Shown here piece after piece: positions 477 to 59,477 of a DNA stretch of 64,000 nucleotides. Where the stretch lies: the NCBI RefSeq assembly GCF_021730395.1, contig NC_069372.1, positions 64,348,221 through 64,412,220 on the forward strand. The letters are read 5' to 3'. The first letter of the stretch is position 1; every line of letters begins with the position of its first letter. Origin of the DNA: Mercenaria mercenaria. Its lineage: Eukaryota. The notes under the pieces were generated by a model that saw only the letters and a list, made by a program, of their open reading frames with translations, made no database searches and was not told the origin of the DNA. Made by a program: the position numbers and the translations under genes.

Positions 477-526
477 GTAGTGTTCATATCTCAGGAAAAT
501 GATGTTTACTGTTCTTTAAAGACCGC

Positions 527-870
527 CTTGGTAGCCTAGTGGTAGAGCGTCCACTTCGAGTGCGGGAGGTCGTGGGTTCGATCCCCGGCCGCGTCATACC
601 TAAGACGTAAAAAATGGTACTAGTAGCATCCTCGCTTTGTGCTCAGCATTAAGAGGATAGTGCTAGGACTGGTCAGCCCGGTGTCAGTATAATGTGACTG
701 GGTGGGGTATCATGCCACGTGTCTACGGCGTGATATTCCAGTGAGGCAGCACTATAAAGTTGGGCATTGTGCTCACTGCTACAAGTAGACACCGTCGTTT
801 ATATGACTGAAAAATTGTTGAAAAAGACGTTAAACCTGAACACACACACACACACACATACTTTAAATAT
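527..870 (+). mobile_element. tRNA-derived SINE. The tRNA-like head is at 527-600; the tail ends in (CA)9.
   Basis: Head shows tRNA features (GGTAGAGCG D-arm, GGTTCGATCC T-arm) but its acceptor stem does not pair. The body 'tgaaaaatggtac…gcattaag…gtcagcccgg…tcagtataatgtga…cagtgaggcagcactataaagttgg' recurs at 10975-11245 and on the minus strand at 20190-20425. Confidence 0.75.
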
Positions 871-960: not shown

Positions 961-1071
961 TCATTTAACGAGCCTGTCAGATGAGACACAGAGGAGTGAG
1001 CTGATCTGTATGTTAGCTGTTCCTGCTAAATATACCATTCACGATCTGCTCAAGTTCAATGGACCTTGTTT
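961..1071 (+). CDS. BRAP: BRAP exon (…HLTSLSDETQRSELICMLAVPAKYTIHDLLKFNGPC…).
   Basis: Acceptor tttcag|T, donor TT|gtaagt. The translation aligns to human BRAP 'MTSLKEDVRRSAMLCILTVPAAMTSHDLMKF'. Confidence 0.7.
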
Positions 1072-1125
1072 GTAAGTTTAAACTGTTTTACCTAAATGAG
1101 CTTAAATATTGATCGTCAGGTTTAT

Positions 1126-3148
1126 ATTGCAGGTACAAAGTACATGATGTATAAATCATGTATAATTTTAACTGCAGGGCTGGTATAGAGTACATTATGT
1201 ATAAATCTTGTATAATTTTAACTGCAGGGCTGGTATAGAGTACATTATGTATAAATCATGTATAATTTTAACTGCAGGGCTGGTATACAGTACATTATGT
1301 ATAAATCATGTATAATTTTAACTGCAGGGCTGGTATAGAGTACATTATGTATAAATATTGTATAATTTTAACTGCAGGGCTCATATAGAGTACATTATGT
1401 ATAAATCATGTATAATTTTAACTGCAGGGCTGGTACAGAGTACATTATGTATAAATCATGTATAATTTTAACTGCAGGGCTGGTAGAGAGTACATGATGT
1501 ATAAATCATGTATAATTTTAACTGCAGGGCTGGTAGAGAGTACATGATGTATAAATCATGTATAATTTTAACTGCAGGGCTGGTACAGAGTACATGATGT
1601 ATAAATCTTGTATAATTTTAACTACAGGGCTGGTACAGAGTACATGATGTATAAATCTTGTATAATTTTAACTGCAGGGCTGGTATAGAGTACATTACAT
1701 ATGTATAAATCTTGTATAATTTTAACTGCAGGGCTGGTAGAGAGTACATGATGTATAAATCATGTATAATTTTAACTGCAGGGCTGGTACAGAGTACATT
1801 ATGTATAAATCTTGTATAATTTTAACTGCAGGGCAGGTACAGAGTACATTATGTATAAATCTTGTATAATTTTAACTGCAGGGCTGGTACAGAGTACATG
1901 ATGTATAAATCATGTATAATTTTAACTGCAGGGCTGGTATAGAGTACATTACATATGTATAAATCTTGTATAATTTTAATTGCAGGGCTGGTACAGAGTA
2001 CATGATGTATAAATCTTGTATAATTTTAACTGCAGGGCAGGTACAGAGTACTTGATGTATAAATCTTGTATAATTTCAACTGCAGGGCTGGTACAGAGTA
2101 AATGATGTATAAATCTTGTATCATTTGAACTGCAGGGCTGGTACAGAGTACATGATGTATAAATCTTGTATAATTTCAACTGCAGGGCTGGTACAGAGTA
2201 AATGATGTATAAATCTTGTATAATTTTAATTGCAGGGCTGGTATAGAGTACATTACATATGTATAAATCTTGTATAATTTTAATTGCAGGGCTGGTACAG
2301 AGTACATGATGTATAAATCTTGTATAATTTTAACTGCAGGGCTGGTACAGAGTACATGATGTATAAATCTTGTATAATTTCAACTGCAGGGCTGGTACAG
2401 AGTACATGATGTATAAATCTTGTATAATTTCAACTGCAGGGCTGGTACAGAGTAAATGATGTATAAATCTTGTATCATTTGAACTGCAGGGCTGGTACAG
2501 AGTACATAATGTATAAATCATGTATAATTTTAACTACAGGGCTGGTACAGAGTACATGATGTATAAATCATGTATAATTTTAACTGCAGGGCTGGTACAG
2601 AGTACATGATGTATAAATCTTTTATAATTTTATTTATTTATTTGTTTTGTTGGGTTTAATGTCACACCAACACAATTATAGGTCATATGGCGACTTTCCA
2701 ACTTTGATGGTGGAGGAAGACCCCAGGTGCCCATCTGCGCATTATTTCATCACGAGCAGGCACCTTGGTAGAACCACCGACCTTGTATAACTAACTGCAG
2801 GGCTGGTACAGGGTACATGATGTATAAATCTTGTATAACTTTAACTGCAGGGCTGGTACAGGGTACATGATGTATAAATCTTGTATAACTTTAACTGCAG
2901 GGCTGGTACAGGGTACATGATGTATAAATCTTGTATAACTTTAACTGCAGGGCTGGTACAGGGTACATGATGTATAAATCTTGTATAACTTTAACTGCAG
3001 GGCTGGTACAGAGAACATGATATATATAAAGCATGTATGGTATTTACCACAGGGCTTGCTTGTATAGAGCACATTTTGTGTAAATTATAATGCAGGACTG
3101 GTGTAGAGCACATGATGTATATTATCATATATATTATTTTTACTGCAG
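1126..3148 (+). repeat. Intronic minisatellite, ~60-bp unit × ~33 (actgcagggctggtacagagtacatgatgtataaatcttgtataattttaactgcag). It is interrupted by a SINE fragment at 2620-2795. The 3' units degenerate into the real acceptor of exon 3149.
   Basis: Direct reading: long runs of near-identical 60-mers. The last unit is the genuine 'ttttactgcag|GGCTGGTATAGAG' exon boundary. Confidence 0.95.
2620..2795 (-). mobile_element. 5'-truncated SINE 3' portion with a conserved core. It is inserted into the minisatellite with a ~10-12 bp imperfect TSD (cttKtataaYt).
   Basis: The core 'ggtcatatggcgactttcca…ggtggaggaagacc…gcattatttcatcac…ggtagaaccaccgacc' is shared with 13330-13595, 15576-15822, 36297-36358 and 42395-42575. 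The tail 'ttgggtttaatgtc…' is the reverse complement of the 15822 tail. Confidence 0.7.
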
Positions 3149-3227
3149 GGCTGGTATAGAGTATATGAGGATAATCAGAGATGGTTCTCCAAACCAGTAC
3201 ATGGTGCTTGTCAAGTTTAGAAATCAG
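3149..3227 (+). CDS. BRAP: BRAP exon (L/AGIEYMRIIRDGSPNQYMVLVKFRNQ).
   Basis: Acceptor ctgcag|G, donor CAG|gtttgt. Matches human 'IEQMKIIRDSTPNQYMVLIKFRAQ'. Confidence 0.8.
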
Positions 3228-3707
3228 GTTTGTTAGTTGTTTTTATTTTATTTGATTTATTTATCAAATTTTATTCAAGCTACACTCTGTAACAGTTCTG
3301 TTTTGTTTGTCTGCTTTTGTGGGTAAATGAATGAATTTGTCTAATGTAAAATGAAAACCTTTGTCTCTAGTGAGTGGTTCTTTTAGGCTAGATTTTTGGG
3401 TCTTTCATTGTATCGACAGTCGTAAATATATGTTTTCATTGCTCATCAAAGGCCAGGAGACTTTCTAGTCTATATTATAGAGGTAGATGTGAGGAGCCTT
3501 TCTAGATAGGCAGGCACCTGTAAACCAGCTGGAAGGTTTCATGGCATGAAAAAAATCAGCACAGGCATGGATAAAAATGCAATGGTGATGTGCAAATGAT
3601 TTTTATTGAATGATATTGATTATTTTTAAGATTCTTTGGTATGATAATGTACTCATTCCTCTATGTGATATGTATATTGTATCTCAGTATTTGCTGAAAT
3701 TTTGCAG

Positions 3708-9156: not shown

Positions 9157-10370
9157 TAGCTCGACTATTCGAAGAATAAGTAGAGCTATCCTACTCACCA
9201 CGGCGTCGGCGTCGGCGTCACACCTTGGTTAAGTTTTCCGTACCAGTCCACATCTTGACAAAGTCTTTTGAGATAAAGCTTTGAAACTTTCAACACTTAT
9301 TTACCATCATCATGGCCAGTTATAGGCAAGAGCACATAACTCCATCAAGGATTTTGGCTGAATTATGGCCCCTTTAGACTTAGAAATCATTGTTAAGTTT
9401 TTCGTACCAGTTCATATTTTGACAAAGTCTTTTGAGATAAAGCTTTGAAACTTTCAACACTTGTTTACCATCACCATGGCCAGTTATAGGTAAGAGTACG
9501 TAACTCCATCAGGGATTTTGGACTGAATTATGGCCCCTTTCGACTTAGAAATCTTGGTTAAGTTTTTCGTACCAGTTCATATTTAGACAAAGTCTTTTGA
9601 GATAAAGCTTTGAAACTTTCAACTCTTGTTTACCATCACCATGTCCAGTTATAGGCAAGAGCACATAACTCCATCGAGGATTTTGGCTGAATTATGGCCC
9701 TTTTTGACTTAGAAATCTGGGTTAATATTTCGTACCAGTTCATATTTTGACAAAGTCTTTTGAGATAAAGCTTTGAAACTTTCAACACTTGTTTACCATC
9801 ACCATGTCCAGTCATAGGCAAGAGAACATAACTCCGTCAAAGATTTTGGCTGAATTATGGCCCCTTTTGACTTAGAAATCTTGGTTAAGTTTTTCGTACC
9901 AGTTCATATTTTTTGTAAAGTGTTTGACATATGGCTTTTAAACTTTTATCACTTGTTTAGTATAATAGTCTCTATCTGTAGGAAAGAGAACATAACTCTG
10001 TCATCTATTTTGGCTGAATTATGGCCCTTTTTGGACTTTGAAATTGGTTCTGTTTTCATACAAGTCCATGTTTTGTCAAAACTATTTGACATATGGCTTT
10101 TAAACTTTGAACACTTGTTTATCATTATGATTTCCATCTGTAGGCAAGAGTACATAACTATTTTGGCTGAATTATGGCCGTTTTTGGACTTTGAAATTGG
10201 CTCATATATTGCCATTTAGTGCAAGACTTATCGAAATCAAAGTAATACAGGAACATTGTTTGTCTAATCTATCTATTTCTTTTGTCTGAATATCCGTGGA
10301 AATATTTTGACCCCATTCTTCAATCAGTTCTTCGAATAGTCAATCACGCTGTCATCAGACAGCTCTTGTT
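9157..10370 (+). mobile_element. Helentron-like element, second family. Asymmetric terminal inverted repeat (TIR) CGACTATTCGAAG / CTTCGAATAGTC; 3' hairpin GCTGTCatcaGACAGC followed by CTTGTT. It carries ~6 tandem ~165-bp units.
   Basis: TIR and hairpin read directly at 9161-9173 and 10330-10370. The tandem units are 'ttttcgtaccagttcatattttgacaaagtcttttgagataaagctttgaaactttcaacac…'. Confidence 0.65.
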
Positions 10371-11245: not shown

Positions 11246-11900
11246 TACACACCCAAATTTTTGCTATGTACATAACAGGGTAGAGATGTATTTCATATTT
11301 CAAAGGATAGTTCAGTGTTTCACTGTTTCACTGTCCAGTTCTTACTGAATTTGATGTTTTATTGATACCTTCTAACTATAAAAACAATCTACAAAAGCCT
11401 GGAGGTGTGGCTCTTAGAAGATATGGTATATTATTAGCGAAATGCACAAATATAAAGAAAAAATAAAGGTAAAGACTGGCACCTTATATGTATGTACATA
11501 TACTGGTACATGTAACTGCTGGGCAGCCGCTTTAATCTACCATACAAGTATGTTAGATTATTTTACATCTTGAATTGTGAATGCTGTTTCATTAACATAA
11601 TGGGTGCCAGTATTTCTGGTAAATTTTCTTAAGGGACTTTAGTTTAAAAGTGTTCTGGTTTAAACTGTAAAAAGTAAATGAGGTTTTAGCATTTGTTTGT
11701 AAGATATAGGTGTAGAAGATTTGTTTTACATTTAAACACTACAGATTTTGTCAGTATTTGTGAAAGTAGTGAAGGATTCCTTTTCGTAATTAAGAAATGT
11801 AATGGTGAATATTTCTTTTGAGTTTTAATGCAATTGACCAAGACTAAATTCATGGAAATGACATAATGAAGGATTTTTTGAAATTATTTTACAATTTCAG

Positions 11901-13329: not shown

Positions 13330-13595
13330 GGGTTTGTGGCCGAATGATTAAGCTTTGTGACTTCAAATCATTTGCCCTCCACTGCTGTGGGTTCAAAAGG
13401 TTGCTTTGGGTGTGGAATTATTTCATGAGAGGAAGCCATCAGGCTGGATTGCAGAGGGTGGGTGGTTCAACCCAGGTGCCTGCCTGAAATAATGCCCAAA
13501 GGAGCAACTAGAGTCTTTTTCCACTGTAAAAAGCTCTAACGTTGTCATATGACCTATAATTGTGATGGTATAGCATTCAATCCAACAAGAAAACA
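13330..13595 (+). mobile_element. tRNA-derived SINE with a conserved central core (A-box-like TGGCCGAATGATTAAGC, B-box-like GGTTCAAAAGG).
   Basis: Core 'acccaggtgcctgcctgaaataatgc…gtcatatgacctataattgtgatggtatagcattcaatccaac' shared with the other copies. Confidence 0.7.
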
Positions 13596-15575: not shown

Positions 15576-15822
15576 CAGAGGTCTCCGTGGCCAAATGGTT
15601 GCCCCTCATCGATGTGGGTTCGAGCCTCACTCGGGGCTTTGAACTCTTCATGTGAGGAAGTCATCCAGCTGGCTTACGGAAGGTCGTGGTTCTACCCAGG
15701 TGCCCGTGATGAAATAATGCACGGAGGGGTATCTGGGGGTCTTCCTCTACCATCAAAGCTGGAAAGTCGCCATGTGACCTATAATTGTTGGTGCGACATT
15801 AAACCCAACAAAATAAAATAAA
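15576..15822 (+). mobile_element. tRNA-derived SINE of the same core family, intact, with an (AAAT)n-like tail.
   Basis: Head 'ggtctccgtggccaaatggttgcccctcatcgatgtgggttcgagcc'; core 'cccaggtgcccgtgatgaaataatgc…gtcgccatgtgacctataattgttggtgcgacattaaacccaacaaaataaaataaataaa'. Confidence 0.8.
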
Positions 15823-16397
15823 TAAAGAATGCCTGTGGTTAGTACTAAACTCGTATATTTGGGGTCAGTAGGTCAGTACAGTGAACTTGATAATGAAATC
15901 AATACTGATTAATAAGTAAAGAACACTTTCTTTCTGCCCTCAAATTTTTAAGGATGCCTTTGGCCAACAGATGGTCCGAATGGTTCTGTAGGTCAGTAGG
16001 TCAAAGGGAAATACTACATTGGCCTAGAGTCTGAAAATGGTTTCCCAAAAATAAATGGAGACTGATTGGTCGTTTGATTGCTAATGTTCTTATGATGATT
16101 TCCTGTGGTCAGTAGGTAACCCTTGTTCATTAGTTAATTTGTGTCAAGGTCACAGTGACCATGATATTCAAAATGGTTTCTGATCAATGTCTGGAACACT
16201 TAGTGTTGTCATAATTTCGAAGGTTATCACAGCAATGAAAATAACATACCCAGCTTCCACTGACAGACCAATTCTTGTTTGTATAAAACATTTTAAAGAT
16301 AATTTTCTTTTTATAGCCCTGATGGTGTTGTGTTTAATTTTTCTACCAATCACCTCATTGATGTTTTTACCTGATTGTCATTTACACCATTTTATTT

Positions 16398-17657
16398 TTA
16401 GCTCACCTGTCACATAGTGACAAGGTGAGCTTTTGTGATCACCTGTCGTCCGTCGTCAGTCTGTGCGTGCGTACGTCAACAATTTCTTGTTTGCACGATA
16501 GTGGTTTTATTTATGATTTTATTTTAACCAAACTTGTTCACAACTTGTATCACCATAAGATCTCGATTCTTTTCTTGAACTGGCCAGATCCCATTATGGG
16601 TTCCAGAGTTATGGCCCCTGAAAGGGCCAAAATTAGCTATTTTGACCTTGTCTGCACAATAGCAGCTTTATTTATGATTTGATTTTTACCAAACTTGCGT
16701 ACAACTTGTATCACCATAATATCTTGGTTCCTTTCTGGAACTGGCCAGATTCCTTTATGGGTTCCAGAGTAATGGCCCCTGAAAGGCCCAAAAATAGCTA
16801 TTTTGACCTTGTCTGCACAATAGCAGCTTTATTTATGATTTGATTTTTACCAAACTTGCACACAACATGTATCACCATAAGATCTTGGTTCCTTTCTGGA
16901 ACTGGCAAGATTCCATCATGGGTTCCAGAGTTATGGCCCCTTAAAGATCCGAAATTGGCTATTTTGGCTTTTGCAGCCATATAGAGACTTCATTTATGGT
17001 TTTATTTGATACAAACTTCCAAAATATCTTCAACAACAATAAATTTTTGATTCCATGACAAATCAGATCCAGTCGTAGGTTTCAGAGTTATTTTATACCT
17101 GATTACCTCCCCTGATTGTAATAAATATGGATTTATATCAGTAAATATTTACAGGACTTATTTGAAATTTCATTATTGTTATTAGTTGGACTAAGACAAT
17201 CAGGGTAGATACAATGTACTGATTTTTTGTCAAATTACCTCCCTTTATTTCAAATTAAAATGGGTATATCTCCGTAACTAATGAAGATACTGATCTGAAA
17301 TTTCATTTATGTCAACAGATTTATTTGGCAGATCTTTCTTTTGTTCACTTATAATTTCTTTTTTTAATTACTTCACATTTACTTTACTATAAATAGCTTA
17401 TTTTTAGTAACTTTTTTATTATTGGCCATAGGGAAAAACGGAGACCACTTTTCTGTGGTACAACATGGATGGTACCTCCAATTTTTAGGTATATTTTGAC
17501 ATATCTATACCTTGTAAGAATTTTTTTTCTTTTTGGTTAAATTTCTTCCCTTTGTTGTTCCTGTCCTTTGGACTTAGATATTTTTTCTGAGGACCTTCTT
17601 GTCCTCAAGGGCAGTGATAACAGGTGAGCGATATAGGGCCATCATGGCCCTCTTGTT
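16398..17657 (+). mobile_element. Helentron-like element. 5' is TTAGCTCACCTG…CAAGGTGAGCT; 3' is CAGGTGAGCGATATAGGGCCatcatGGCCCTCTTGTT. Internal ~170-bp tandem units × 3.5 at 16500-17000.
   Basis: Asymmetric terminal inverted repeats (AGCTCACCTG vs CAGGTGAGCG), a 3' GC hairpin and a CTTGTT terminus, all read directly. Confidence 0.7.
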
Positions 17658-19504: not shown

Positions 19505-20790
19505 GTTTTTGGGGACGCTCCATCAAAGGTCAAGGTCACAGGGACCTGAACATGGAAAACCATCCATTTCTGATCACTAACTTTTGAAACACTTGATCTA
19601 GAACGTTGAAACTTCATTGGATGATTGGACATGCAAAAGAGATGACCCCTATTGATATAGGGGTTACTCTGTGAAAGGTCAAGGTCACAGGGGCCTGAAC
19701 ATGGAAAACCATTTCCAATAAATAACTTGAGAACTACTTGGCCCAGAATGTTGAATCTTCATAGGATGAGTGGATATGCAGAGTAGATGGCCTCTATTGA
19801 TTTTGGGGTCACATTGTGAAAGGTCAAGGTCACAGCAGCCAGAACATAGAAATCCATTTCAGTAACTTGAGAACCATTTGATCTAGAACCTACAAACTTC
19901 ATAGAGTGATAGTACTTACAGAGTAAATGACCCCTATTGTTTTTGGTCATTCCATCAAAGGCCAAGGTCACAAGAGCCATCTCTCGGTAACACTTCGTTT
20001 TTGATCAATAACTGTAGAACCATTTGATCTAGAGCCTCAAACTTCATAGGGTGATAGGTGATAGTTTAATGTTTGGGTTTACTAGATCAAAGGTCAAGGT
20101 GACAGGGACCTGAACATGGAAAACCGTTTCTGGTCAATAACTTTAGAATTCTTAACCCAGAATTTAGTTTATACATAATTTATTTTAGGTCGATTGTGAA
20201 GGAAGTTCTACACTTGATATTAATCACTCTCGACACCTCGTTCCTGATGGAATCCATCGCCACGAGGGTATGAGAGAAAATGCCAGTTTCCCTTTTAATG
20301 CTGAGCGCCAAGCAAGGGAGCTACTGATACCATTTTCACGTCTTTTGTATGACGCGACCGGGGATCGAACCCACAACCTCCCGCACTCGAAGCGGACGCT
20401 CTACCACTAGGCTATCGGGGCGGTTTAAATATATAACTTGACCTAGAATATTGAAACTTCATAGGATGATTGGACATGTAGAGTAGATGACTCTTATTGA
20501 TTTTTGGGTCACATAATCAAAGGTCAAGGTCAACAGGACCAGAACATAGAAAACGGTTTCCGATCAGTAACTTCAGAACCATTTGACTCAGAACCTTAAA
20601 ACTTGATAGTACTTACAGAGTAGATGACCCTTATTGTTTTTGGGGTCACTTGAGCTATGGTCAAGGTCGCAGGGGTCTGAACATGGAAAACTGTTTCCGA
20701 TCAATAACTTGAGAACTGCTTGACCCAGACTGTTGAAACTTCGTAGAATGATTGGACATACCTATTGCAGCCAACCTTCATTGTCTCTTT
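19505..20790 (+). repeat. Tandem array of ~150-bp units × ~9 (…atcaaaggtcaaggtcacagggacctgaacatggaaaacc…cttgatctagaac.ttgaaacttcatagg.tgattggacatg.a.agtagatgacccctattg…). It is interrupted by a SINE at 20190-20425.
   Basis: Direct reading. Each unit carries AAAGGTCAAGGTCA. Confidence 0.9.
20190..20425 (-). mobile_element. tRNA-derived SINE (same family as 527-870) inserted into the 150-bp array.
   Basis: The reverse complement of 20341-20420 folds as a tRNA-like head with anticodon loop TTCGAGT and a degraded acceptor stem. The body matches the 600-700 region. Confidence 0.75.
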
Positions 20791-21651: not shown

Positions 21652-23097
21652 TTAGCTCACCAGAGCACAAAGTGCTCAAGGTGAGCTATTGCATATGTAA
21701 CCGGTCATTGTCCGGCGTCCGTCGTGTGTCGTGCGTCGTCTGTCAACATTTGCCTTGTGAACACTCTAGAGGCCACATTTGTGACCCACTCTTTATGAAA
21801 CGTGGTCAGTATGTTAGTCTTGATTATCTTTAGGTCAGCTTCGAAACTGGGTCATGTGGGGTCAAAAACTAGGTCAATAGGCCAGATCAAAGGAAAAGCT
21901 TGTGAACACTCTAGAGGCCACAGTTGTGACCCAATATTTATGAAAGTTGGTCAGAATATTTGCCTTGATGATTTCTAGGTCAAGATATAATCTGGTTTAT
22001 GTGAGGTCAAAAACTAGGTCACCCGGTCAAATCAAAGGAAAATATTATGAACACTTTAGAGGCCACAATAATGACTCAATCTTTATGAAACTTGGTCAGA
22101 ATGTTTGTCAGAATGTTTGTCTTGATGATTTCTGAGACTGGGTTATGTCGGGTCAAAAACTAGGGTACTAGGCCATATCAAAGGAAAATCTTGTCAACAC
22201 TCTATAGACCACAATTTAAGTTTGAAGCTCATGCGAATTAGTCAGAATGTTTAAAGATCTATAGGTCACGTTCGAATCTGGGTCATGTGGGGTCAAAAAC
22301 TAGGTCACCCGGTCAAATCAAAGGAAAAGCTTGTGAACAATTTTGAGGCCAAAGTTGTAACACAATCTTTATGAAACTTGGCCTGAATGTTTAACTTGAT
22401 GATTTCTAGGTCAAGTGTGGTATTTAAAACTAGGTGTGAATAGGTGGAACAACTACACATAACTATGTTTGGTCAGTTAGACCGAAGGATCAAAGGAAAA
22501 AGCTGCAGATGAAACAAATCTAGAGGCCATAATTGTGCACTCAATCTTTTTAAAATTTGGTCAGAATGTTTGTCTTAATGATCTCTAGGCCAGGTTAGAA
22601 TCTGGGTTATGTGTAGTTAAAAACTAGGTCAGTATACCAGATCAAAGGAAAAGCTTGTCAACACTAAAGAGGCCACAGTTGTGACCCAATATTTATGAAA
22701 CTTTGTCAGAATGTTTGCCTTTATGATCTATAGGTCAATTTTGAAACTGGGTCATATGGGGTTAAAAACTAGGTCAGTAGGCCAGATCAAAGGGAAAACT
22801 TGTGAACATTCTACAGGCCAAAGTTGTGATTCAGTTTTTATGAAACGTGGTCAGAATGTTTGTCTTGATGATCTCTAGGTACAGTTTTAATCTGGGTCAT
22901 TTTGGGTTAAAAACTAGGTCACATGGTCAAATCAAAGGAAAAAGTTGTGAACACTCTAAAGGCAACAGTTGTGACTCAATCTTTATGAAACTTGGTCAGA
23001 ATGCTTGTCTTGATGATCTCTAAGTTAAAATCGAAACTGGGTCAGTAGGCCAGATCAACTCTGGTGAGCGATATAGGGCCTTCATGGCCCTTTTGTT
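21652..23097 (+). mobile_element. Helentron-like element with ~10 tandem ~125-150-bp units (…ggtcaaaaactaggtca…gatcaaaggaaaagcttgtgaacactctagaggccaca…). 3' is CTGGTGAGCGATATAGGGCCttcatGGCCCTTTTGTT.
   Basis: Same terminal architecture as the element at 16398-17657. Confidence 0.7.
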
Positions 23098-23689: not shown

Positions 23690-26060
23690 GCTGTCAGAAC
23701 GGCTTCATGCAAAGTGCTATTAAGTTTGTCTACTGCTGTCAGCACGGCACAACAGGAAGTGCTATTCAGTTTGTTTACTGCTGTCAGCACGGCACAACAC
23801 GAAGTGCTGTTCTCTTTGTCTACTGCTGTCAGCACGGCACAACAGGAAGTGCTATTCAGTTTGTTTACTGCTGTCAGCACGGCACAACACGAAGTGCTGT
23901 TCTCTTTGTCTACTGCTGTCAGCACGGCACAACAGGAAGTGCTATTTAGTTTGTTTACAGCACGGCACAACAGGAAGTGCTATTCAGTTTGTTTACTGCT
24001 GTCAGCACGGCACAACACGAAGTGCTGTTCTCTTTGTCTACTGCTGTCAGCACGGCACAACAGGAAGTGCTATTTAGTTTGTTTACTGTCAGCACGGCAC
24101 AACACGAAGTGCTGTTCTCTTTGTCTACTGCTGTCAGCACGGCACAACAGGAAGTGCTATTTAGTTTGTCTACTACTGTCAGCACGGCACAACACGAAGA
24201 GCTGTTCTCTTTGTCTACTGCTGTCAGCACGGCACAACAGGAAGTGCTATTTAGTTTGTTTACTACTGTCAGCACGGCACAACACGAAGTGCTGTTCTCT
24301 TTGTCTACTGCTGTCAGCACGGCACAACAGGAAGTGCTATTTAGTTTGTCTACTACTGTCAGCACGGCACAACACGAAGTGCTATTTAGTTTGTCTACTG
24401 CTGTCAGCACGGCACAACACGAAGTGCTATTTAGTTTGTCTACTGCTGTCAGCACGGCACAACAGGAAGTGCTATTCAGTTTGTTTACTGCTGTCAGCAC
24501 GGCACAACACGAAGTGCTATTCAGTTTGTTTACTGCTGTCAGCACGGCACAACACGAAGTGCTATTTAGTTTGTCTACTACTGTCAGCACGGCACAACAT
24601 GAAGTGCTGTTCTCTTTGTCTACTGCTGTCAGCACGGCACAACAGGAAGTGCTATTTAGTTTGTGTACTACTGTCAGCACGGCACAACACGAAGTGCTGT
24701 TCTCTTTGTCTACTGCTGTCAGCACGGCACAACAGGAAGTGCTATTTAGTTTGTCTACTGCTGTCAGCACGGCACAACACGAAGTGCTATTTAGTTTGTC
24801 TACTGCTGTCAGCACGGCACAACACGAAGTGCTATTTAGTTTGTCTACTGCTGTCAGCACGGCACAACAGGAAGTGCTATTCAGTTTGTCTACTGCTGTC
24901 AGTACGGCACAACACGAAGTGCTATTCAGTTTGTGTACTGCTGTCAGCACGGCACAACAGGAAGTGCTATTCAGTTTGTTTACTGCTGTCAGCACGGCAC
25001 AACACGAAGTGCTATTCAGTTTGTTTACTGCTGTCAGCACGGCACTTCGTGTTCAGTTTGTCTACTGCTGTCAGTACGGCACAACACGAAGTGCTATTCA
25101 GTTTGTGTACTGCTGTCAGCACGGCACAACAGGAAGTGCTATTCAGTTTGTTTACTGCTGTCAGCACGGCACAACACGAAGTGCTATTCAGTTTGTTTAC
25201 TGCTGTCAGCACGGCACAACACGAAGTGCTATTCAGTTTGTTTACTGCTGTCAGCACGGCACAACACGAAGTGCTATTTAGTTTGTCTACTGCTGTCAGC
25301 ACGGCACAACACGAAGTGCTATTTAGTTTGTCTACTACTGTCAGCACGGCACAACACGAAGTGCTGTTCTCTTTGTCTACTGCTGTCAGCACGGCACAAC
25401 ACGAAGTGCTATTCAGTTTGTTTACTGCTGTCAGCACGGCACAACACGAAGTGCTATTTAGTTTGTCTACTGCTGTCAGCACGGCACAACATGAAGTGCT
25501 GTTCTCTTTGTCTACTGCTGTCAGCACGACACAACACGAAGAGTTGTTCTTTTTTGTCTACTGTTTGTCTACTGCTGTCCGCACGGCACAACACGAAGTG
25601 CTGTTCTGTTTGTCTACTGCTACAGCACGACAGAACACGAAGTAATGTTCTGTTTGTCTACTGCTGTCAGCACGGCACAACACGAAGTGCTGTTCTGTTT
25701 GTCTACTGCTATCAGCACGGCACAACACGAAGTGCTGTTCTATTTGTCTACTGCTGTCAGCACGGCACAACACGAAGAGTTGTTCTTTTTTGTCTACTGT
25801 TTGTCTACTGCTGTCCGCACGGCACAACACGAAGTGCTGTTCTGTTTGTCTACTGCTGCAGCACGACAGAACACGAAGTAATGTTCTGTTTGTCTACTGC
25901 TGTCAGCACGGCACAACACGAAGTGCTGTTCTGTCTGTCTACTGCTATCAGCACGGCACAACACGAAGTAATGTTCTATTTGTCTACTGCTGTCAGTACG
26001 GCACCACGCAAAGTGCCGTTCTATTTTTCTACCGCTGTCAGTATGACACCACCCGAAGCT
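23690..26060. repeat. 60-bp minisatellite × ~39 (ctactgctgtcagcacggcacaacacgaagtgctgttctctttgt / …caggaagtgctattcagtttgtt variants, partly alternating as a 120-bp higher-order unit). The array decays towards its 3' edge.
   Basis: Direct reading. The unit length is a multiple of 3 and lacks stops in several frames, which explains the overlapping 643/434/415-aa and antisense 361-aa ORFs. Confidence 0.95.
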
Positions 26061-29000
26061 ATTCTGTTTATCGACTGTGCGGCAGCACGCGAAGTACTGT
26101 TTTATTGTCCTATTTTATTGAACTGTCAAATGCATATTGATTACATGAGCGGTGCACAGAATATTTTAATCTTCGGTTGATTTTCGGTACAAACACATGT
26201 ACAAAGTAACCAGCAATTGAAATGGTTTATATTTAAAGCGTGTATACCTAATGTACGCAAGTCACGATAGCTCAGTGTTCATCGTCAATAGTTTTAAACC
26301 TGTAGGTCGTAAGATCGAAACCTCTTAGTGTCAGTGTGTGTTTGTGTGTGTTTTTAACAAAGTTCCACAAACACGTTGTACATGTACATTTTCATCCAGT
26401 ATTTCCTAAACTGTATTTTTACAAGTATTCTTTTTTCTATTTTTATCTCTTTTATTATTTCCCATTTCATATACAAATGTATATATTTCTATGTTATTTT
26501 TTTATTCACAGTTCATTTCACTACATTACAAATTTCATAAATATAAATTACAACTAGATAGATTCATCATTCAGTTTCCTCGCGATGTCGGTACTGCTGA
26601 CCTCGGAGTTATATAAATTATATAAATAATTAAAAATGAAAAAATAAAAATGTTCTCGCTAATGGGTTCGAACCAGCGATTTCCTGCATACTAGCTATGT
26701 GCTGTAACCACTGAGCCACAGATACGACCGACGAGTGCATGTTTCACTTACAATACTAATAATGATATTTAGACACTTGACCAAAATTTCTTTCCGTAAA
26801 ACATACGGATAGCACCGAAGTTGGGCCGAATATTATAATATCGAATGCACAGAGCGTATAATGTATGCATATTTGACAGGTTAAAAAATAGTACAATACA
26901 TGTGGAAGGGGGGTTAGTTAATCCAAGATGAAATTACAACAAGTCTTGTTATTTCCCTTTGACCAGTTTCTTTTCATACACATGTGCTTTACCGTTGCCT
27001 GGTTATAATGGATATCGCGGGAATATCATCACATGTGCTCGGATTTTGACCGTTTTATTGAACTTTTTATAGTAAAGACCGAGACATCAGGCCCCGAACT
27101 GAGGTGTGAGCATTTCTCTGTTCCAAAAACTGTAATAGATTCAGCTGGATTAAACTATTTCGATCGAAAAACGTTGCAATATCAGGAAATATTTTTCTGT
27201 CTTTGAAATAACTTTGAACATTACAAAAATAAGCATTTAAATTATTCTTTCATTGAAGCTAGTCGAGATATAGTTGTTAGCTTGTTATAGTCCCCTAATC
27301 AAGGTTAACTGATGGTCTCCGACATGTGTAAGTGATGTTAAAATATATGTCCAAAGATAGTACCCGGTGCTTCAGAAAAAAACCCACATACACACACACA
27401 AAAGACAACTGCTGTACATCATGCACGTCGGGATTAGCAATACCATCCATTTGTTGCTATTGTATTTGTGTCAAATGTATGTCATCATGGGCTTTTTAGC
27501 TTATCTGATTTGAAATAAAATGTCTGTCTGTCTGTCTGCCTGTTCTCATTGCGAGCAATACTGCCAGAACCAGAGCATGTTATCTTAGGTAAGGAAAAAG
27601 ATACTTTGCAAGATGTAACTAGCTTGAAAAATAAAAGAATAAGTAAACTTTATAACCATTATTGTAGGCACATCAGCTGAACTAATGATGTATACGTGGC
27701 ACAACCAGAACTAACCAATTATGTTTGTATTTGTGGTAAAAAAAGCAAGAGTACGTAAACTCGCAGCTGAATTGCACCTAAAATATCACGTTTATGGTAA
27801 AAAAATACTTAAACACATAATATTATAGAGTATGTAAATAATTTAGAACCGTCAGATATTTTAAGGTTACTATAATTGTACCAAAGAATATGAACGAGAT
27901 ATTACGTGGAATAATACTAGGCGACTTTAGTAGGAGCGCAATGATGCATCCGCGTAAGAACAAGTGTATATTGTCCGTTACAAGTCCAATGACCTATTCA
28001 TAACATACACGTTTATGAAAAAAATCGAATATGAACAAACAGCAACACTTGAAATTATATGCTGGTCAGAAACACAACATTTACGATTATTTAGAATTTA
28101 GAGATGTAAAAAATCTTCTTCATCTTCCAAAGGGGAGTATTATTTTCTATCGCTTTGTAAAACGGTAAAATTTAGCAGTGATCTTGCTACATGTTTTTTT
28201 TTTACTTGATGTATGACTAAATCTGCTTGTCTTTTGATATATTAATAATATATATATTACCAGCGTAACTACAAGAACATAATATCTACAAAAGAACATC
28301 TATTCTTCTTCTCCGGTTTCATCTGTGCAATAAACAGGCATGATTTGTGCGGATAAAGCCAATAGAAGTAAAACATGATCCATGGAGCCAATATTGGCAA
28401 ATCTGTGTAATTTCATATCACATATCTTCATTTTATTCCAGTTAATTAAGTTGTTATTGCATTCAAATATATTTATATTTTCAAATACGATCCCTGAACG
28501 ATCTTTGAGGTTATGAATAGAGCATCAAGGGCGGTTAGTGTGTCCATTTGCTGTAGATTTATGTATGAAATATGTAATACACCGCTGTTTAAACTATTCA
28601 TACAACTTTATTAACATCTCTGTTATGTATACCTCTTTTAGAAAACTGCATTTTTACAAAAATAAAGCAAAATGGAGATAGATATGGCGGAATCCCCGCC
28701 TAGGAAACAAAACATTGCACGTGCACACGCACACAGCCACAAATCCATCTACCCACCTATCCAGCTGTTGTTGTTTTGTTTCGGAGAGGGTGCATTCTTT
28801 TAATGTAACTATTTCTTCTTGGTATTTTCTTCATTTTTTATTTGTTTGATTGACTTTGCTCATGAGAGGCAATGAAATGTGCAATATCTTTCTAGTCCCC
28901 ACGGAACAGGCGTAAATGTGCAATATCTTTCTAGTCCCCACGGAACAGGCGTAAATGGATTTATATTAGACAAGTATTAAATGGACTCCATGTTCTCTCT

Positions 29001-29617: not shown

Positions 29618-29907
29618 CGGTGCCCCTAAAGTTACATGTTACACACTTTTTTTCCACTTAGGTAATGTGAGACTTTTTTTTATTTCAACTATTTCGTTTA
29701 AACGAAATGATTTCGTTTGAACGAAATAACTATTTCGTTTAAACGAAATCATTTCGTTTAAACGAAATAAGTTTAAACGAAATAGTTATTTCGTTAAAAC
29801 GAAATCATTTCGTTTAAACGAAATAAAAAAGTCTCACATTACCTAAGTGGAAAAAAGTGTGTAACATGTCACTTTAGGGGCAGGCACGAAAGAAGTCTAT
29901 TCCAGTG
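29618..29907. mobile_element. Foldback/palindromic insertion present only in copy 1 of the duplication. Long inverted arms (gtgcccctaaagttacatgttacacacttttttt ccacttaggtaatgtgagac…) enclose repeats of the self-palindrome atttcgtttaaacgaaat.
   Basis: The inverted repeat is read directly. The paralogous site at ~36860 lacks the insert. Confidence 0.7.
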
Positions 29908-31337
29908 GCTGCTTAAAATGGCAAAATCCGCAAACCGTTTTTCCGGTTACAGTAATTTTTCTTTTCAGTAACGTTTCAATTTTTATGACAGTTTTTAGTA
30001 TTTCCTGAAAAACGTATTACCAGTTCAATTTTAAAAGGTGAAATAATATAATTTTCCCAAAAGAAGCAAAACTTTCTGAGCATTTCTCCTGCATATTTAT
30101 CAAGGGGCAAGTGCCAACATAGTGTAATTTATGTCGTCAAATAGTTTTATACGGTAACACGATAAAAACGAAAATGTTGCAGGCTCGGATTGATTGAGCC
30201 TGTTCATGGACGGTAGTAGAAATTGATGCTACTGTCCATGCCCTTTAGCCCTTGGTTGAGAATGACTCAACATTTACACATGCTACAAGTACAAAAGATA
30301 ATAGGTAAAGGTAGATTTCTCGGAAGCACAGAGCACCAAAAAACACAGCCTCAGAGCCACGTGTTTCCAAAGTAGGCCCACAACAAAAAGAAGCTGTAAT
30401 GGAAAAATATTACAGACGGGTTGCTTCAAAAATGTAACAAGTACATATAAATTTATGCCAAGTATAGATAGAGGGGGAGAAAGTGGCAATGGGTAAAAAG
30501 GGGAAAGGGGTTGGGGTTGGGGGAGGAAATAGAAGGGGAAAGTAGAAAAAAGATGAATATACAAAGTGAATGCTACATTCCTTAATTAAGGTTACACTAC
30601 AACGTAAACCACAATAGCGCACACATTCATGTATCAAAGATAAACACACAGCGACACCCAACTAACTAACATAGAAAAACGAACAGGTAAGATACAAGAC
30701 CACAGTAGGGCACCGCTTTAGAAAAACAATTTAGAGACATCCGCATATGTGTTCGTACGGCAGTGCACATGGAACCTTCAATGATACACTACACATGGAA
30801 CCTTCAATGATACACTAGAGTGTAAATCAATGAAAAGCGGAACAGTTTAAATAATAGGCATACATTTGTAACTAAACAAACTGGAGTTTAGAAAGGGGGT
30901 CAGAGGTTATGGAGCCTGCATATCATATGAACTGCCAAAAGACAAAATTAAAAAGCAGGCACCATTTCCAAGGGGTAATTATACAATACCCAAAGCTATG
31001 AAAGCGAGGGTATTGAACCACCCAGGCCGTAGTGTTAAAACTGAGAAACTGAACTACCAATAACATGACATAAATGTCGTGCTGAACAATTTTTTTCATT
31101 GAATATCTTTCGGCAAACTGGCAGCAAACGGAAATCTTTTTTTTTCAACTGTTATGTCAAATTGCATCCCAAATATGCAAGTGTACTTTCACTTTTGAAA
31201 CAAATGCGAACGCTTACCTACGAATATCTGTAGCAGTAGATGCGTCTTGTTCGAATTCAAATTTACGTGTTTTATTGTCTAAACGGTCAGATATATTAAT
31301 ATTCTACAAAAGATGAAATATTTTCAACATTGTTACT

Positions 31338-33163
31338 TTTTAGCATAGAGTTTTTGTGATCGCTCGATGTCCGTCGTCTCTCTTCTGTCTGTTTGTCGTC
31401 TGTCTGTCAACATTTAGCTTGTGTATGCTATAGAGGCTGTACTTTTCAATAGATCTTTATGCAAAATTTGGTCAGAACAATTACCTTGATAAAATCTAGG
31501 CCAAGATCGAAAATGGGTCATCTGGAGTAAAAAAACTAGGTCACTAGGTCAAATCAAAGAAAAACCTTGTGTATGCGATAGAGACTGTATTTTTCAATTG
31601 ATCTTCATGAATTTTGGTCAAATGATAACCTTGATAAAATCTAGGCCAGCTTTAAAAATGGGCTATCGGGAGTCAAAAACTAGGTCACTAGGTCAAATAA
31701 AAGAAAAACCTTGTGTATGCGATAGAGACTGACTGTATTTTTCAATTGATCTTCATGAATTTTGGTCAAAATGATTGTCTTGATGAAATCTAGGTCAAGT
31801 TTGAATATGGGTTATCTCGGGTTAAAAACTAAGTCACTAGGTCATATCAAGGAAAAAGCTTGTTTATACAATAGGGACTTCATTTTACACCAAATTTTAA
31901 TGAAATTTGATCAGAATGTTTGTCTGGATGAAATCTAGGTCAAGTTGGAATGTGGATCATCTGGGGTCAAATACTAGGTCAAAAGGTCAAATTAAAGAAG
32001 AATTCTGTGTATGCAATAGGGGCTGCATTTTACATTAGATATTCATAAAATTTAGTCGGAATAATTGCTCTGATGAAATCTAGGAGGAGTTCGAATATGG
32101 GTTATCTGGGATTAAAAACTAGGTCACTAGGTCAAATCAAAGAAAAAACTTGTGTATGCGATAGGGGCTGCGTTTTACACAGGATATTCATGAAATTGAT
32201 CAGAATGTTTGTGTGAATGAACTCAAGGTTGAGTTCGAATGTAGGTCATCTAAGGTCAAAAACTAGGTCATCCGGTCAAATTAAAAAAAAACTTGTGTAC
32301 GCAAAAGGGGCTGCATTTTACACTGGATATTCATAGAATTTAATAAGAATGATTGCCTTGACGAAAACTAGGTCAGTTTCAAATATGGGTTATCTGGGGT
32401 CAAAAACTAGGTCGCTAGGACAAATCAAAGAAAAACATTGTGTATGCGATAGAGGCTGTATTTCTCAATTGAGGTTCATGAAATTTAGTCAGAATAATTG
32501 CCTTGGTACAATCGAGGTCAGGTTTGAATATTGATTATCTGGGGTCAAAAAATAGGTCACTAGGTCAAATTAAAGAAAAACCTTGTGTAAGCAACATGTG
32601 CTGCATTTTACACCCGATCTTCATGAAATTTGATCACAATATTTGTCTTGATATCTTCTAGGTCAGATTTGAATCTGGGTCATGTTGGGTCATAAACTAG
32701 GTCATCTAGTCAAATCAAAGGAAAAGCTTGATAACACTTAAGAGGCCACATGTATGACCATATCTTCATGAAATTTGATCAAAATGTTTATGTTGATGTT
32801 TAAAGTCTTGGATGATTTCGAATGTGGGTCTCATGGGGCCAACAACTAGGTCACTAGATCAAATCAAAGGAAAAGCTTGTATACATTCTAGAGGTCACTT
32901 CTTTCATTCTTCCTGAAACTTTGTCAGAATGTTTTTTTTTTATGGAATCTTGGACAAGCACGAATCTGGGTCATGTGCGGTCAGAAACTAAGTCACTAGG
33001 TCAGATCACAGAAAGTACTTGTTTACCCTCAATATTTTTGATCCAATCTTAATGAAAATTGGTTAGGATATTTGTTTCTGTGAAGTCACTAGGTCAAACA
33101 TGTTTACACTGTTATGGTGTGTTTCTCAGGTGCGCGACCTAGGGCCAACTTGGCCCTCTTGTT
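31338..33163 (+). mobile_element. Helentron-like element with its 5' hairpin deleted, carrying ~12 tandem ~130-bp units (…ctaggtcactaggtcaaatcaaagaaaaaccttgtgtatgcgatagaggctg…). 3' is CAGGTGCGCGACCTAGGGCCaacttGGCCCTCTTGTT.
   Basis: 3' terminus and internal array read directly. There is no counterpart in duplication copy 2, so it was inserted after the duplication or deleted from copy 2. Confidence 0.65.
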
Positions 33164-34899: not shown

Positions 34900-35169
34900 T
34901 CCCCATGTGGTTCTGGGACGATTTATGTATAAAAAGAATTGGAACCACTGCCTAACCCTTGCATGATCGTAAGAGGCGACTAATAGGGTCTTAACACTTG
35001 GTTTTGCTGTAACTCTGTGATTCCAGCAGGTATGCAAATTTTGATTCCATACCTCATACTTTTATTTCGATGTAAATGAGATGTGAAACCAAAATTTGTA
35101 GTCCTGTTTGGCGCCATATAACCTATATTGTGTTGGTGCGCCGTAAAACCCAAATAAATAAATAAATAA
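34900..35169 (+). mobile_element. SINE-like insertion with a perfect 12-bp TSD atatagtaaatg (34888-34899 and 35170-35181). Present only in duplication copy 1.
   Basis: The TSD is read directly. Tail 'tgttggtgcgccgtaaaacccaaataaataaataaat' matches the SINE tail family. Confidence 0.7.
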
Positions 35170-36339
35170 TATAGTAAATGCTTTAATTTCAACACGATCG
35201 CTGGATGCAATTGATATTCGACCACACATATTTAAGAGCAAGCCTTTTCACACAAGAATATTGTCGCAAAAATAAAGCATGGGTATGACCTTGGAGCAAG
35301 GCATAATTGGCTAACTCCATTAGCGTTTATTGCTGAATTGTAGACATATCATTAGTTTACTCTCATCTTCTATGTATGATGTCTTTTCTATCAACCTTTA
35401 TCGGAGGTTCAGATCAGTTCACAGTCAGATATCGAAAGACTTGCGGTAGTATTTGTTAAAATATTGGGAGCTTGGTACACCCAGATGTTTAACTTATAAA
35501 CAGAGGACAAATGATGTGAAACATCATGCCATCCATCAATTCCTCACGTCTCACGTGGACCATATGCATTGTCTGGGTATCGATTTCAGGGGATACTGGG
35601 TATGCACTCTCTCTATTTAGCTTAATATCCTGCTATAAAACATATCGCTGAATACAGTACTTTTGCGACAAAACTAGGATGATTAAGGAGAAGTTACTAC
35701 CTTTATTACTTTTCTTTTACAAATATTTTTATCGTCCATTTGGAACTATTGCTAATATATCGCAGTATTACCAAGCAGACGAAAAATTGGTCTTTAATGT
35801 CAAAACTCCCTGTGGTGTTTACGCCACTGACCTCTTTGGTGTGTCCTGGTGTGTCCATGTGTGTCTTCATGTATGTTTGTGTCTTTTTGTTATTTCTATG
35901 TTTGATGCATTATACTCGTACGTGTACGTGTATACATTATCAAGAACCATATTTCCACTAGACTGATGCATGAGACGTTGCATCCCGCCTGAGTTTTTAA
36001 TTTGCTTAGTTTTCCTTGTCAAGTGGTCTCTCAATACAGGTATATGTTAAAAGGAAAGAGAAAATGGTGATCTAATTTCGCGCTTTAATAGTGCCTTTGT
36101 CAGAGTTTTGTTGCACTTTCATGATCTTAAATCTATACATTGATAACTGTTGTAATATCCTTGTAGAACATATTTCTTACTTACCTATTAGATTAAGTGT
36201 ATGAATATGTAGAAAGTGTATTCTTTGTTACTATCTGATATAAACGGTCTTACTTCCTGAGCTAACCATTCAGTTCATTCGCATTACCTTTGCTTTTTTT
36301 TTTGGATTTAACGCCGCACCGACACATGATAGGTCATAT

Positions 36340-41250: not shown

Positions 41251-42394
41251 AGTTAGAGATGTTCCTCTGTTGGAGGAAAGTCACATATTGAAAGTCATGC
41301 TGTGATATTTGTTAAGCTATCAGGAGGTGTACACTGTTCGATAGTGCCGTTTGCCTTATTATCTCTCTCTTATACATCATTTTTAAGAATTTCAATTGTA
41401 GTTTAAGGAATTGTTAAAATATTCAAAATATCTTGATAAGTTTAGAAGTAATCGTCAAAATCGTTTTTACTGGATATTATCCCATTATTAATTTCAGCAA
41501 TTTTGGGCATAATTTATTTTAAAACAATCACATTTTGACTGAATTCGTCGATTGACTTTCATAAAACTTTCAGGATATCTTAGTTACCTTCCCATTAGAG
41601 CAAAACTTAAGTTAATGTTAACTTATAAATATGTATTACTTTACGACGAAGTTTTATGAAAACAGAACGTACTTGAATGAAAACGAGTATATTGCCAAGA
41701 AAACGACATTTGACAATGGTTGGATCATACATTTAACTATTAGGTTCAATGCTATTGTTATCTTTATTGCAATATCTTAGCTTTGTGCGGGACGATATTA
41801 CGATAGGAATTTGATATGAAAATCTACGATAAAGTCTAAAAAATCTCGGTTGTGAATAAAAGAAACTTGATTAAAAGATTTCCGCTAAAGAATAAATTCT
41901 TTGCATCGGACCAACAGCTGTGCTCAATTGTAATATGAAAACTCTCTCTCAAAAATAAATTCTCTGCGTCGGACCAGCTGCACAGCTTTATCGGCATCTG
42001 AATATCTATCTTTCAGGAATAAAGTCTGCGCTGGACCAGCTACTCTGCCTAACTGTGACCTCTCTGTCTCTGTCTACGGTGGGACTCAAACTACTCCATA
42101 GCTCTTGATCCGGAGGCGAACGCTTTACCACTGAGCACACGATTCCACTTTCGGTGAAGTAATTTTGTCTAATGGTACAGAGTCCGCCTCCGGTGCAGAA
42201 GGTCGCGGATTCTATCCACGGTCGCGTACCAAGGATGTGAAAAATGGTACCAGTTGCTCCCTTAAACTGCTCAGCATTATGTATATAGAACAGGCTCTTC
42301 TCTCAAACTGTGAGGACTGATGTCTAAAATGGTAGAATTTGTTTCAGGATTCACCTTGATTTAATTACTGTAAGAATAGTAATTTTGTATCAGA

Positions 42395-42575
42395 TATTTT
42401 CGTGTTTGGGTTTAACGTCGCACCGACACAATTATAGGTTATATGGCGACTTTCCAGCTCTGATGGTGGAGGAAGACCCTATGTGCCTCTCCGAGCATTA
42501 TTTCATCACGAGCGGGTACCTGGGTAGAACCACCGACCTTCTGTAAGCCAGCTGGATGGTGTATCAGATATAGGA
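42395..42575 (-). mobile_element. SINE (core family), minus orientation. Adjacent tRNA-like head fragments lie at 42080-42300.
   Basis: Core 'ggttatatggcgactttccagctctgatggtggaggaagaccc…gcattatttcatcacgagcgggtacctgggtagaaccaccgacc'. Confidence 0.7.
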
Positions 42576-59474: not shown

Positions 59475-59477
59475 TAA

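Follow-up and report, generated by a model that had tools for sequence, protein, structure and literature searches.

An intron of the BRAP gene (BRCA1-associated protein/IMP) of Mercenaria mercenaria is occupied almost throughout by a minisatellite, each unit of which repeats the 3' splice site of that same intron together with the start of the exon that follows. The array lies in a stretch of 64,000 nucleotides (contig NC_069372.1 of assembly GCF_021730395.1, positions 64,348,221 to 64,412,220 of the forward strand), which is called the window below and from whose first letter all positions are counted. We regard it as a boundary-derived intronic minisatellite of the "mirage" type, and put the probability of this explanation at roughly 0.8. 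The name "mirages" was introduced for boundary-spanning tandem repeats of amphioxus Adh3 (Canestro et al. 2002 NAR 30:2871, as cited in PMC3087553).

Structure of the array

Tandem repeats were located by Tandem Repeats Finder (TRF), and the units were then anchored on the motif AG/G(G or A)C; here and below a slash within a sequence marks the splice junction. TRF called an array at 1132-3026 with a period of 50, 37.4 copies, 86% matches and a score of 2504. Beyond the end of this call three degenerate copies run on to 3148, and the array as a whole extends over 1128-3148. An earlier sequence-only reading of the window had placed a large tandem array here, and both the TRF call and the degenerate copies bear it out, although the unit is 50 bp long and not 60 bp as that reading had it. 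The spacing between units is mostly 50 bp, with 54 bp in three of them; the last three inter-site intervals measure 52, 43 and 53 bp, and a single interval of 211 bp holds an insert, a short interspersed element (SINE).

Each unit contains the sequence '...ttttaactgcag/GGCTGGTA(C or T)AGAGTACATGATG'. The decoy acceptors that stand in register number 36 and run from 1178 to 3096, where the earlier count was about 33, and the authentic site at 3149 comes next. An extra degenerate 'ttgcag' at the left edge (1126-1131) lies beyond the 36 decoys. By local alignment the array begins at ~1128, only 56 nt past the donor. Except for these first 56 nt and the SINE, the intron consists of the array throughout (Table 1).

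Table 1. Positions of the BRAP array and its parts, of other arrays, and of the orthologous introns. Positions without a locus name are those of the window.
Feature	Location	Strand	Description and basis
Upstream BRAP exon	961-1071	+	...HLTSLSDETQRSELICMLAVPAKYTIHDLLKFNGPC + 2 nt of Leu codon; tblastn high-scoring segment pair 944-1066; acceptor AG 959-960; donor TT/gtaagt at 1071/1072
Donor GT (1072-1073) and sole unique part of the intron	1072-1127	+	56 nt; local alignment, direct reading
Left sub-array	1128-2632	+	Truncated first copy + ~29 units of 50 bp (three of 54 bp), each with decoy cag/GGCTGG; TRF, unit table
5'-truncated tRNA-derived SINE within one unit	~2633-2784	-	(AAAT)n tail at low-coordinate end
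Right sub-array	2785-3052	+	Decoys at 2801, 2851, 2901, 2951, 3001; unit table
Two degenerate terminal units, then authentic pyrimidine tract + AG (3147-3148)	3053-3148	+	43 + 53 bp; decoys 3053, 3096
Authentic BRAP exon	3149-3227	+	79 nt, AGIEYMRIIRDGSPNQYMVLVKFRNQ; donor GT 3228-3229, sequence gtttgt
Arrays of 137-164-bp units	9224-10159, 16486-16966, 19525-19946, 20480-20729, 21754-23044, 31418-32880
Mytilus acceptor-side array	L001 8939-11322		At least 27 copies; 56-bp unit = 24 nt intron + 32 nt exon; up to 55/56 identical
Mytilus donor-side array	L001 11413-11634		10 extra donor copies, 'GTGAGGTTATATGTCAG', 20-21-bp units
L007 donor-side array	L007 1146-1544	gene on -	Marine metagenome contig OREC01018006 (ENA)
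Orthologous intron, Mytilus	L001		~495 nt; no array
Orthologous intron, Batillaria (gastropod)	L003		~193 nt; no array
Orthologous intron, Nematostella (cnidarian)	L004		~330 nt; no array
Orthologous intron, metagenome contig	L011		~233 nt ('KFNAPVL/KGIEYMRVIRDGSPNQYMVLVKF'); no array
Orthologous intron, metagenome contig	L007		592 nt ('KFNGPCL/KGIEYMRVIRDSSPNQYMVLVKFRNQ'); no array

The unit as a copy of the splice junction

The true junction at 3148/3149 reads 'tttttactgcag/GGCTGGTATAGAGTATATGAGG'. In an ungapped comparison from -19 to +22 the unit consensus is identical to it at 35 of 41 positions, and an alignment with one gap carries the homology from -17 to ~+27. These two alignments uphold the proposal, made from the letters of the window, that the unit copies the BRAP acceptor and exon start. 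Elsewhere in the window (~124,000 other positions on both strands) the best match of the junction 41-mer is 23/41, and since the unit reaches 35/41, the similarity goes far beyond the YAG/G consensus. Consistent with this, the 253 other CAG/G sites match the unit at 20/41 at best, so that a likeness confined to the consensus, which the sequence-only reading had named as the case against itself, is ruled out.

If up to three mismatches are allowed, a 30-mer taken from the unit occurs 30 times in the window, always within the array, with 0 occurrences expected. A 38-nt segment of the unit had no exact match in metagenome contigs, and none of the other BRAP exon boundaries in the window turned out to have extra local copies. 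The units stay in register up to 3148/3149, where the array directly meets the authentic boundary and has the functional junction as its terminal unit. The 50-bp unit is wholly explained by about the last 20 nt of the intron and the first 26-30 nt of the exon.

The BRAP gene and its orthologous introns

A BRAP-like probe, used as a lead only, served for tblastn exon mapping and placed twelve BRAP exons on the plus strand between 944 and 14832. Their joined translations match BRAP proteins, the best listed being that of Mytilus galloprovincialis (1.8e-140, 76% identity), and contain the Pfam domains BRAP2 (PF07576), RING (PF13639) and zf-UBP (PF02148). The protein database listing held 120 BRAP homologues, all shorter than 500 aa; full-length animal BRAP has ~560-600 aa, so that a complete BRAP of the same species may have escaped this listing. 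On this homology the exons that flank the array are assigned to BRAP coding sequence. The upstream exon, for which orthologues are present in Mytilus, Batillaria, L007 and L011, ends in '...KFNGPC' + TT. The exon at 3149-3227 reads (TT)G GCT GGT ATA GAG TAT ATG..., which translates to L-AGIEYMRIIRDGSPNQYMVLVKFRNQ; by translation and homology it is genuine BRAP coding sequence, which supports the exon that had been claimed at 3149. The intron between them (1072-3148) is 2077 nt long and in phase 2. A protein search with ~100 residues around the intron gave five weak or partial matches, none of them a protein or transcript of the same species.

Loci L003 and L006-L014 were examined by DNA search, direct reading and TRF. 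The exon start encodes the conserved BRAP residues G-I-E-x-M/L-R/K-I-I/V-R-D, with EGIEYLRIVRD as the equivalent in Mytilus and EFIENIKIIRD in Nematostella. The phase-2 intron, three codons before I-E, is found at the identical position in the five other loci compared, and the array is absent from 5/5 of these introns, among them that of L007, whose BRAP is the nearest to the window's among the loci found. The conserved exon start, taken together with the shared array-free intron, means that copying went from the boundary to the array. Since the same intron occurs without the array in five loci, the boundary is ancient and the array a lineage-specific gain, copied from the boundary in place. 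The comparison with orthologous introns that the sequence-only reading had suggested thus finds the array to be lineage-specific. Its idea of an acceptor and exon start duplicated in situ is likewise supported by the conserved residues, by the array-free orthologous introns and by the lack of any unit elsewhere in the window.

The synonymous site at +16 has C in the units, in L007 and in Mytilus, and T in the window's exon and in L011; this is at most a hint that the units may preserve an earlier state. In L010, which is cnidarian-like genomic DNA, the ~480 nt that were read before the exon contained no array. Two more loci contain BRAP without introns: P0003, which is uninformative on introns, and L005, a cnidarian-like transcript.

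Turnover of the array and the SINE insertion

Left of the insert there are 28 full units of 19 sequence types, and the mean pairwise identity of these units, 92-93%, hardly falls with distance. A block of ~6 units at 1932-2235 is 95.7% identical to the block at 2236-2539, whereas other block pairs have a mean of 92.4%. Such a block duplication and such a pattern of unit similarity would fit repeated unequal exchange or slippage. There is no gradient of exon likeness along the array, as the left and central units all have 33-35 of 41 positions in common with the junction. The last three units are degenerate, with 32, 20 and 30 of 41 against the 33-35/41 of typical units; decoys 3053 and 3096 account for the 20/41 and 30/41. 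Some adjoining interior units are identical while the edges escape homogenisation, which is a sign of concerted evolution.

The insert that splits the array is a 5'-truncated tRNA-derived SINE on the minus strand, as judged from its own sequence and its relatives in the window. This copy runs from 'AAGGTCGGTGG' to an (AAAT)n tail. On its two sides lie CTTTTATAATTTTA (2619-2632), with which the left sub-array ends, and CTTGTATAACTAA (2782-2794), which together form an imperfect target-site duplication of ~13 nt of unit sequence. Because the duplicated flanks are unit sequence, the SINE entered an array that already existed. The tail, the target-site duplication and the dispersed copies all speak for the later SINE insertion recognised in the sequence-only reading; its limits of 2620-2795, however, have to be replaced by ~2633-2784. 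Three identical units of the right sub-array carry two private variants (-12 C and +12 G), which are absent from 29/29 left-hand units and from the authentic junction. These variants indicate that the two halves of the array have been homogenised separately since the SINE was inserted.

At least five other copies of the SINE were found in the window by blastn with 75-88% identity (42406-42546, 15680-15829, 13457-13588, 36294-36357 and 35112-35169). In the alignment the other copies reach further 5' into a B-box-like GGGTTCGAGCC head, which the array copy lacks. tRNA-like heads of the same dispersed element lie at 525-596 (+), 20350-20421 (-) and 42169-42279, the last of which adjoins the tail copy at 42406-42546, the segment that was also inserted into the array. 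ARAGORN labels the 72-nt tRNA-like heads tRNA-Ser(CGA), but the long variable arm is lacking, and only 20350-20421 exceeds the Rfam tRNA threshold (37.5 bits).

Predicted splicing of the intron

When joined to the donor at 1071, with the donor at 3227 retained, each of the 36 decoys leads to a stop within 6-30 codons, which substantiates the premature termination that the sequence-only reading had considered; acceptor 3149 alone keeps the reading frame open. Among the 17 nt from -20 to -4 the authentic site has 11 pyrimidines, including a T5 run, as compared to 8-10 in the decoys and 8-9 in decoys 3053 and 3096. The two decoys nearest the exon are the weakest ones. A search by eye for a discriminating branch point gave only a yUnAy at -7, in decoys and real site alike.

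We infer that the exon-proximal acceptor at 3149 is the one in use. This choice agrees with the undisturbed splicing reported for amphioxus mirages (PMC3087553, PMC3902484), with the position effect described for human F7 (PMC1557585) and, indirectly, with the Mytilus gene model, in which the last acceptor and first donor beside analogous arrays are the ones employed. Exon definition is the most likely way in which the exon-proximal acceptor would be chosen, and any use of the decoys would probably be cleared by nonsense-mediated decay (NMD). A productive mRNA would need the last acceptor, the one that can pair with the donor 79 nt downstream and is followed by exon sequence beyond +26; it may be aided by its slightly better pyrimidine tract and by the decay of the two nearest decoys.

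Origin of the array and alternative explanations

A short series of events could have given rise to the array. A segment of ~50 bp, from ~20 nt before the 3' splice site to ~26-30 nt into the exon, would have been tandemly duplicated in place. The copy joined to the rest of the exon would have stayed the working boundary, and the upstream copy would have turned intronic. Replication slippage and unequal exchange may then have raised the number to ~37 copies under ongoing homogenisation, by which a short ancestral intron (193-592 nt in relatives) would have grown to 2077 nt. Finally, a SINE would have entered one of the units and split the array into two blocks that homogenise separately. We assume that the array has no function of its own and that decoy use would end in a premature stop and probably in NMD. 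Tandem duplication and unequal exchange probably left the array behind as a by-product that is neutral or slightly deleterious.

Several observations weigh against this account. The left edge of the array starts, by local alignment, in the exon-like half of the unit, which a one-step duplication does not predict; a further deletion or rearrangement has to be assumed. One assembly and a single haplotype underlie the copy number. As to splicing, it is the reading frame and homology that point to the use of acceptor 3149. Decoys and real site are alike between -7 and +8, differ once at -8 and have a similar AG-free zone, and the first decoy lies ~106 nt from the donor, a distance that would suit intron-definition splicing; some mis-splicing is plausible, and it might be substantial. 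RNA folding offered no structural cause for silencing of the decoys, with z-scores of -0.2, -2.3 and -0.2 for decoy blocks and the authentic junction.

The near-identity of decoys and acceptor, the stop codon behind every decoy and the short distance from the donor to the first decoy would also suit a functional array, in which regulated decoy use yields NMD-sensitive BRAP transcripts that tune expression or delay splicing. The nearest pseudo-donors of human IFI6 and CBS are used constitutively, according to the account given of these genes in PMC1557585. Yet BRAP works without the array, as its absence from all five orthologous introns demonstrates, and the boundary that carries an analogous array differs from species to species, a scatter that suggests mutational accident, not a conserved device. 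Moreover, amphioxus mirages are reported without aberrant mRNAs (PMC3087553, PMC3902484). We consider a functional array improbable.

An assembly artefact, in which repeat reads were mis-joined or over-expanded to give the array or its present size, is also quite improbable. Assemblies are prone to errors in tandem repeats, and in the draft genome of amphioxus the BflGb6 mirage had been put together wrongly (PMC3087553). However, the BRAP array consists of 19 unit variants in an ordered pattern, with three 54-bp variants, a SINE with its duplication and degenerate edges, and such features are not products of collapse or expansion artefacts; comparable arrays are also present in independent assemblies of other species. 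A dispersed satellite or transposon-borne minisatellite that already lay beside the exon, or an exon whose 5' end was recruited from a repeat, is extremely improbable, for while the introns of the window are rich in transposon-associated tandem arrays with 145-164-bp units, the exon start encodes the conserved G-I-E-Y-M, the position and phase of the intron are common to a cnidarian, a gastropod and three bivalve-like sequences, the 50-bp unit comes wholly from local intron (-20 to -1) and exon (+1 to ~+30), no copy of it occurs elsewhere in the 64 kb, and no transposon termini flank the array.

Boundary-derived arrays in other BRAP loci

Boundary-derived arrays turned out to be present in other BRAP genes as well. 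In Mytilus galloprovincialis (L001, UYJE01008377) the exon at 11323-11412 (YTYLLTSQLESQRLYFEEKMNQIEENGKLT; YTYLLTSQLES...GKLT) has such arrays on both sides (Table 1), and in the annotated BRAP protein it is spliced at the last of the acceptors and the first of the donors. In the metagenome contig L007 a 33-bp unit in ~12 copies consists of the last 26 nt of an exon (...CPVCRYCQTPEEVADSRCMKCGSQE; '...RCMKCGSQE') and 'gtgagta'. This unit is in frame (VSRCMKCGSQE) and free of stops, so that pseudo-donor use would add 11-residue repeats to the zinc-finger region. The boundaries of the window that match the array sites of Mytilus and L007 have no copies, and the four arrays therefore arose independently. 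BRAP by itself thus yields four such arrays in three genomes, each at a boundary of its own. None was found in the gastropod and cnidarian BRAP loci.

Three candidates were rejected as boundary arrays: the minisatellite at 23712-26077 of the window, with no splice-site content and no adjacent exon recognised, the perfect 39-bp duplication at 28875-28957, with neither splice-site content nor exon adjacency, and a 34-bp array of Batillaria (L003 23921-24457), which lies in the intron of another gene, ~35 nt past the donor and without including it.

Both of the non-transposon minisatellites with at least five copies in Mytilus BRAP are boundary-derived (2/2). In L007 the largest of three arrays is boundary-derived and the second (48 bp x 4.6 copies) is not. 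A random duplication is expected to reach a boundary in ~3-9% of cases per array. These data suggest that boundary-derived minisatellites are common in bivalves. A stronger claim, that minisatellites in bivalve genomes arise preferentially at exon-intron boundaries, a suspicion already raised for amphioxus, is possible but in our judgement unlikely. The low random expectation, together with the removal by selection that such arrays should undergo, would point to a mechanism targeted to boundaries. If the claim were true, splice-signal sequence, transcription- or splicing-associated DNA damage and RNA-templated repair would be candidate mechanisms, and the arrays would offer natural multi-decoy test beds for the choice of 3' and 5' splice sites. 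A full-text literature search, within the searchable library, gave no report of boundary-derived arrays in bivalves or in Mytilus.

Other features of the window

Downstream of BRAP, at 23712-26077, lies a minisatellite of 52.5 copies of a 45-bp unit (AAGTGCTATTCAGTTTGTCTACTGCTGTCAGCACGGCACAACACG) with 87% matches. Since 45 is a multiple of 3, it gives rise to long spurious open reading frames (ORFs) on both strands (e.g., 23714-25645). The tandem arrays of 137-164-bp units (Table 1) have 71-89% identity, and one of them is inside a BRAP intron. Similar arrays of 146-166-bp units occur in the Mytilus BRAP introns (L001 6065-6789, 6964-7234 and 16177-16935). The arrays of 137-166-bp units are probably transposon-associated satellite-like repeats.

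The region 56580-61331 (+) holds three consecutive long ORFs of 412, 526 and 614 aa. The second shows a weak endonuclease/exonuclease/phosphatase match that falls below the Pfam cut-off (E = 3.6e-4), and the third matches the reverse transcriptase RVT_1 (E = 1.7e-37). The whole resembles a LINE-type retrotransposon. Two tandem duplications, each of two copies with 100% identity, at 28875-28957 (39 bp) and 30766-30817 (26 bp), lie in no recognised exon context and look very recent. A palindromic motif of ~19 bp (ATTTCGTTTAAACGAAAT) is repeated ~7 times with variable spacing at 29687-29826.

Comparison with known systems

The "unusual origin for a minisatellite" that the sequence-only reading saw here is overstated, since there are precedents in amphioxus (PMC3087553, PMC3902484) and in human genes (PMC1557585). 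The BRAP array agrees with mirages in every structural criterion that can be tested; the example is new, and the phenomenon has already been described. Besides Adh3, amphioxus mirages are found in the globins BflGb6 and BflGb9, in TnC and in PGBD5 (PMC3087553, PMC3902484), and normal splicing as well as length or somatic instability have been shown for them (PMC3087553, PMC3902484). As in BflGb6, the BRAP array is located at the acceptor side, its unit joins the 3' end of an intron to the 5' part of an exon, and the authentic copy comes last. Many units of amphioxus mirages retain AG/GT signals, as do those of the BRAP array, and the concerted evolution with edge units that escape homogenisation is also known from BflGb6 (PMC3087553). 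The differences are that the host is a mollusc and not a cephalochordate, that there are 36 decoys vs. 3-6 in BflGb6, and that the unit is shorter than that of BflGb6 (50 bp vs. 150-160 bp); its 50 bp fall inside the range of 10-72 bp in Adh3. The BRAP array also fills nearly the whole intron and contains a SINE, and its normal splicing is a prediction. Mirages have so far been described mainly in amphioxus and may be common in bivalves.

Boundary-spanning variable number tandem repeats (VNTRs) have been described in the human genes F7 (IVS7, 37 bp), IFI6 (6-16), CBS (IVS13), LMNB2 and PDGFA (intron 4) (PMC1557585). In these, too, the terminal unit holds the authentic junction and identical pseudo-sites are reiterated in the intron. 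In the human VNTRs the exon-adjacent site is used, and the same is predicted for the BRAP array. The F7 pseudo-sites are intrinsically functional yet lose by position, and the F7 work led to a 5'-to-3' "oriented scanning" result (PMC1557585). The human repeats are, however, donor-side: their first unit straddles the border between exon and 5' splice site, and the pseudo-sites follow downstream, whereas the BRAP array is acceptor-side, with the pseudo-sites upstream and transcribed before the real site. Because of this difference in layout the "oriented scanning" result is not directly transferable. The donor-side arrays of Mytilus L001 (11413-11634) and L007 (1146-1544) are the counterparts of the human VNTRs. 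With its 36 near-perfect decoys transcribed ahead of the real site, the BRAP array is an unusually large acceptor-side example and offers a natural test of how an exon-proximal acceptor is chosen, a mirror image of the donor array of human F7. It is also a likely length-polymorphic marker and matters for gene annotation, as decoy sites can mislead gene predictors.

The array is relevant, finally, to the growth of introns and to models in which boundary duplication leads to intron gain. Rogers (1989), as presented in PMC3087553 and PMC2891723, proposed that introns are gained or slide by tandem duplication across AG/GT proto-splice sites. The BRAP array resembles this model in that a segment with a splice signal was tandemly duplicated and one copy became intronic. 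It departs from the model in that no new intron was formed: an ancient one, shared with Nematostella, was expanded with its position and phase unchanged.

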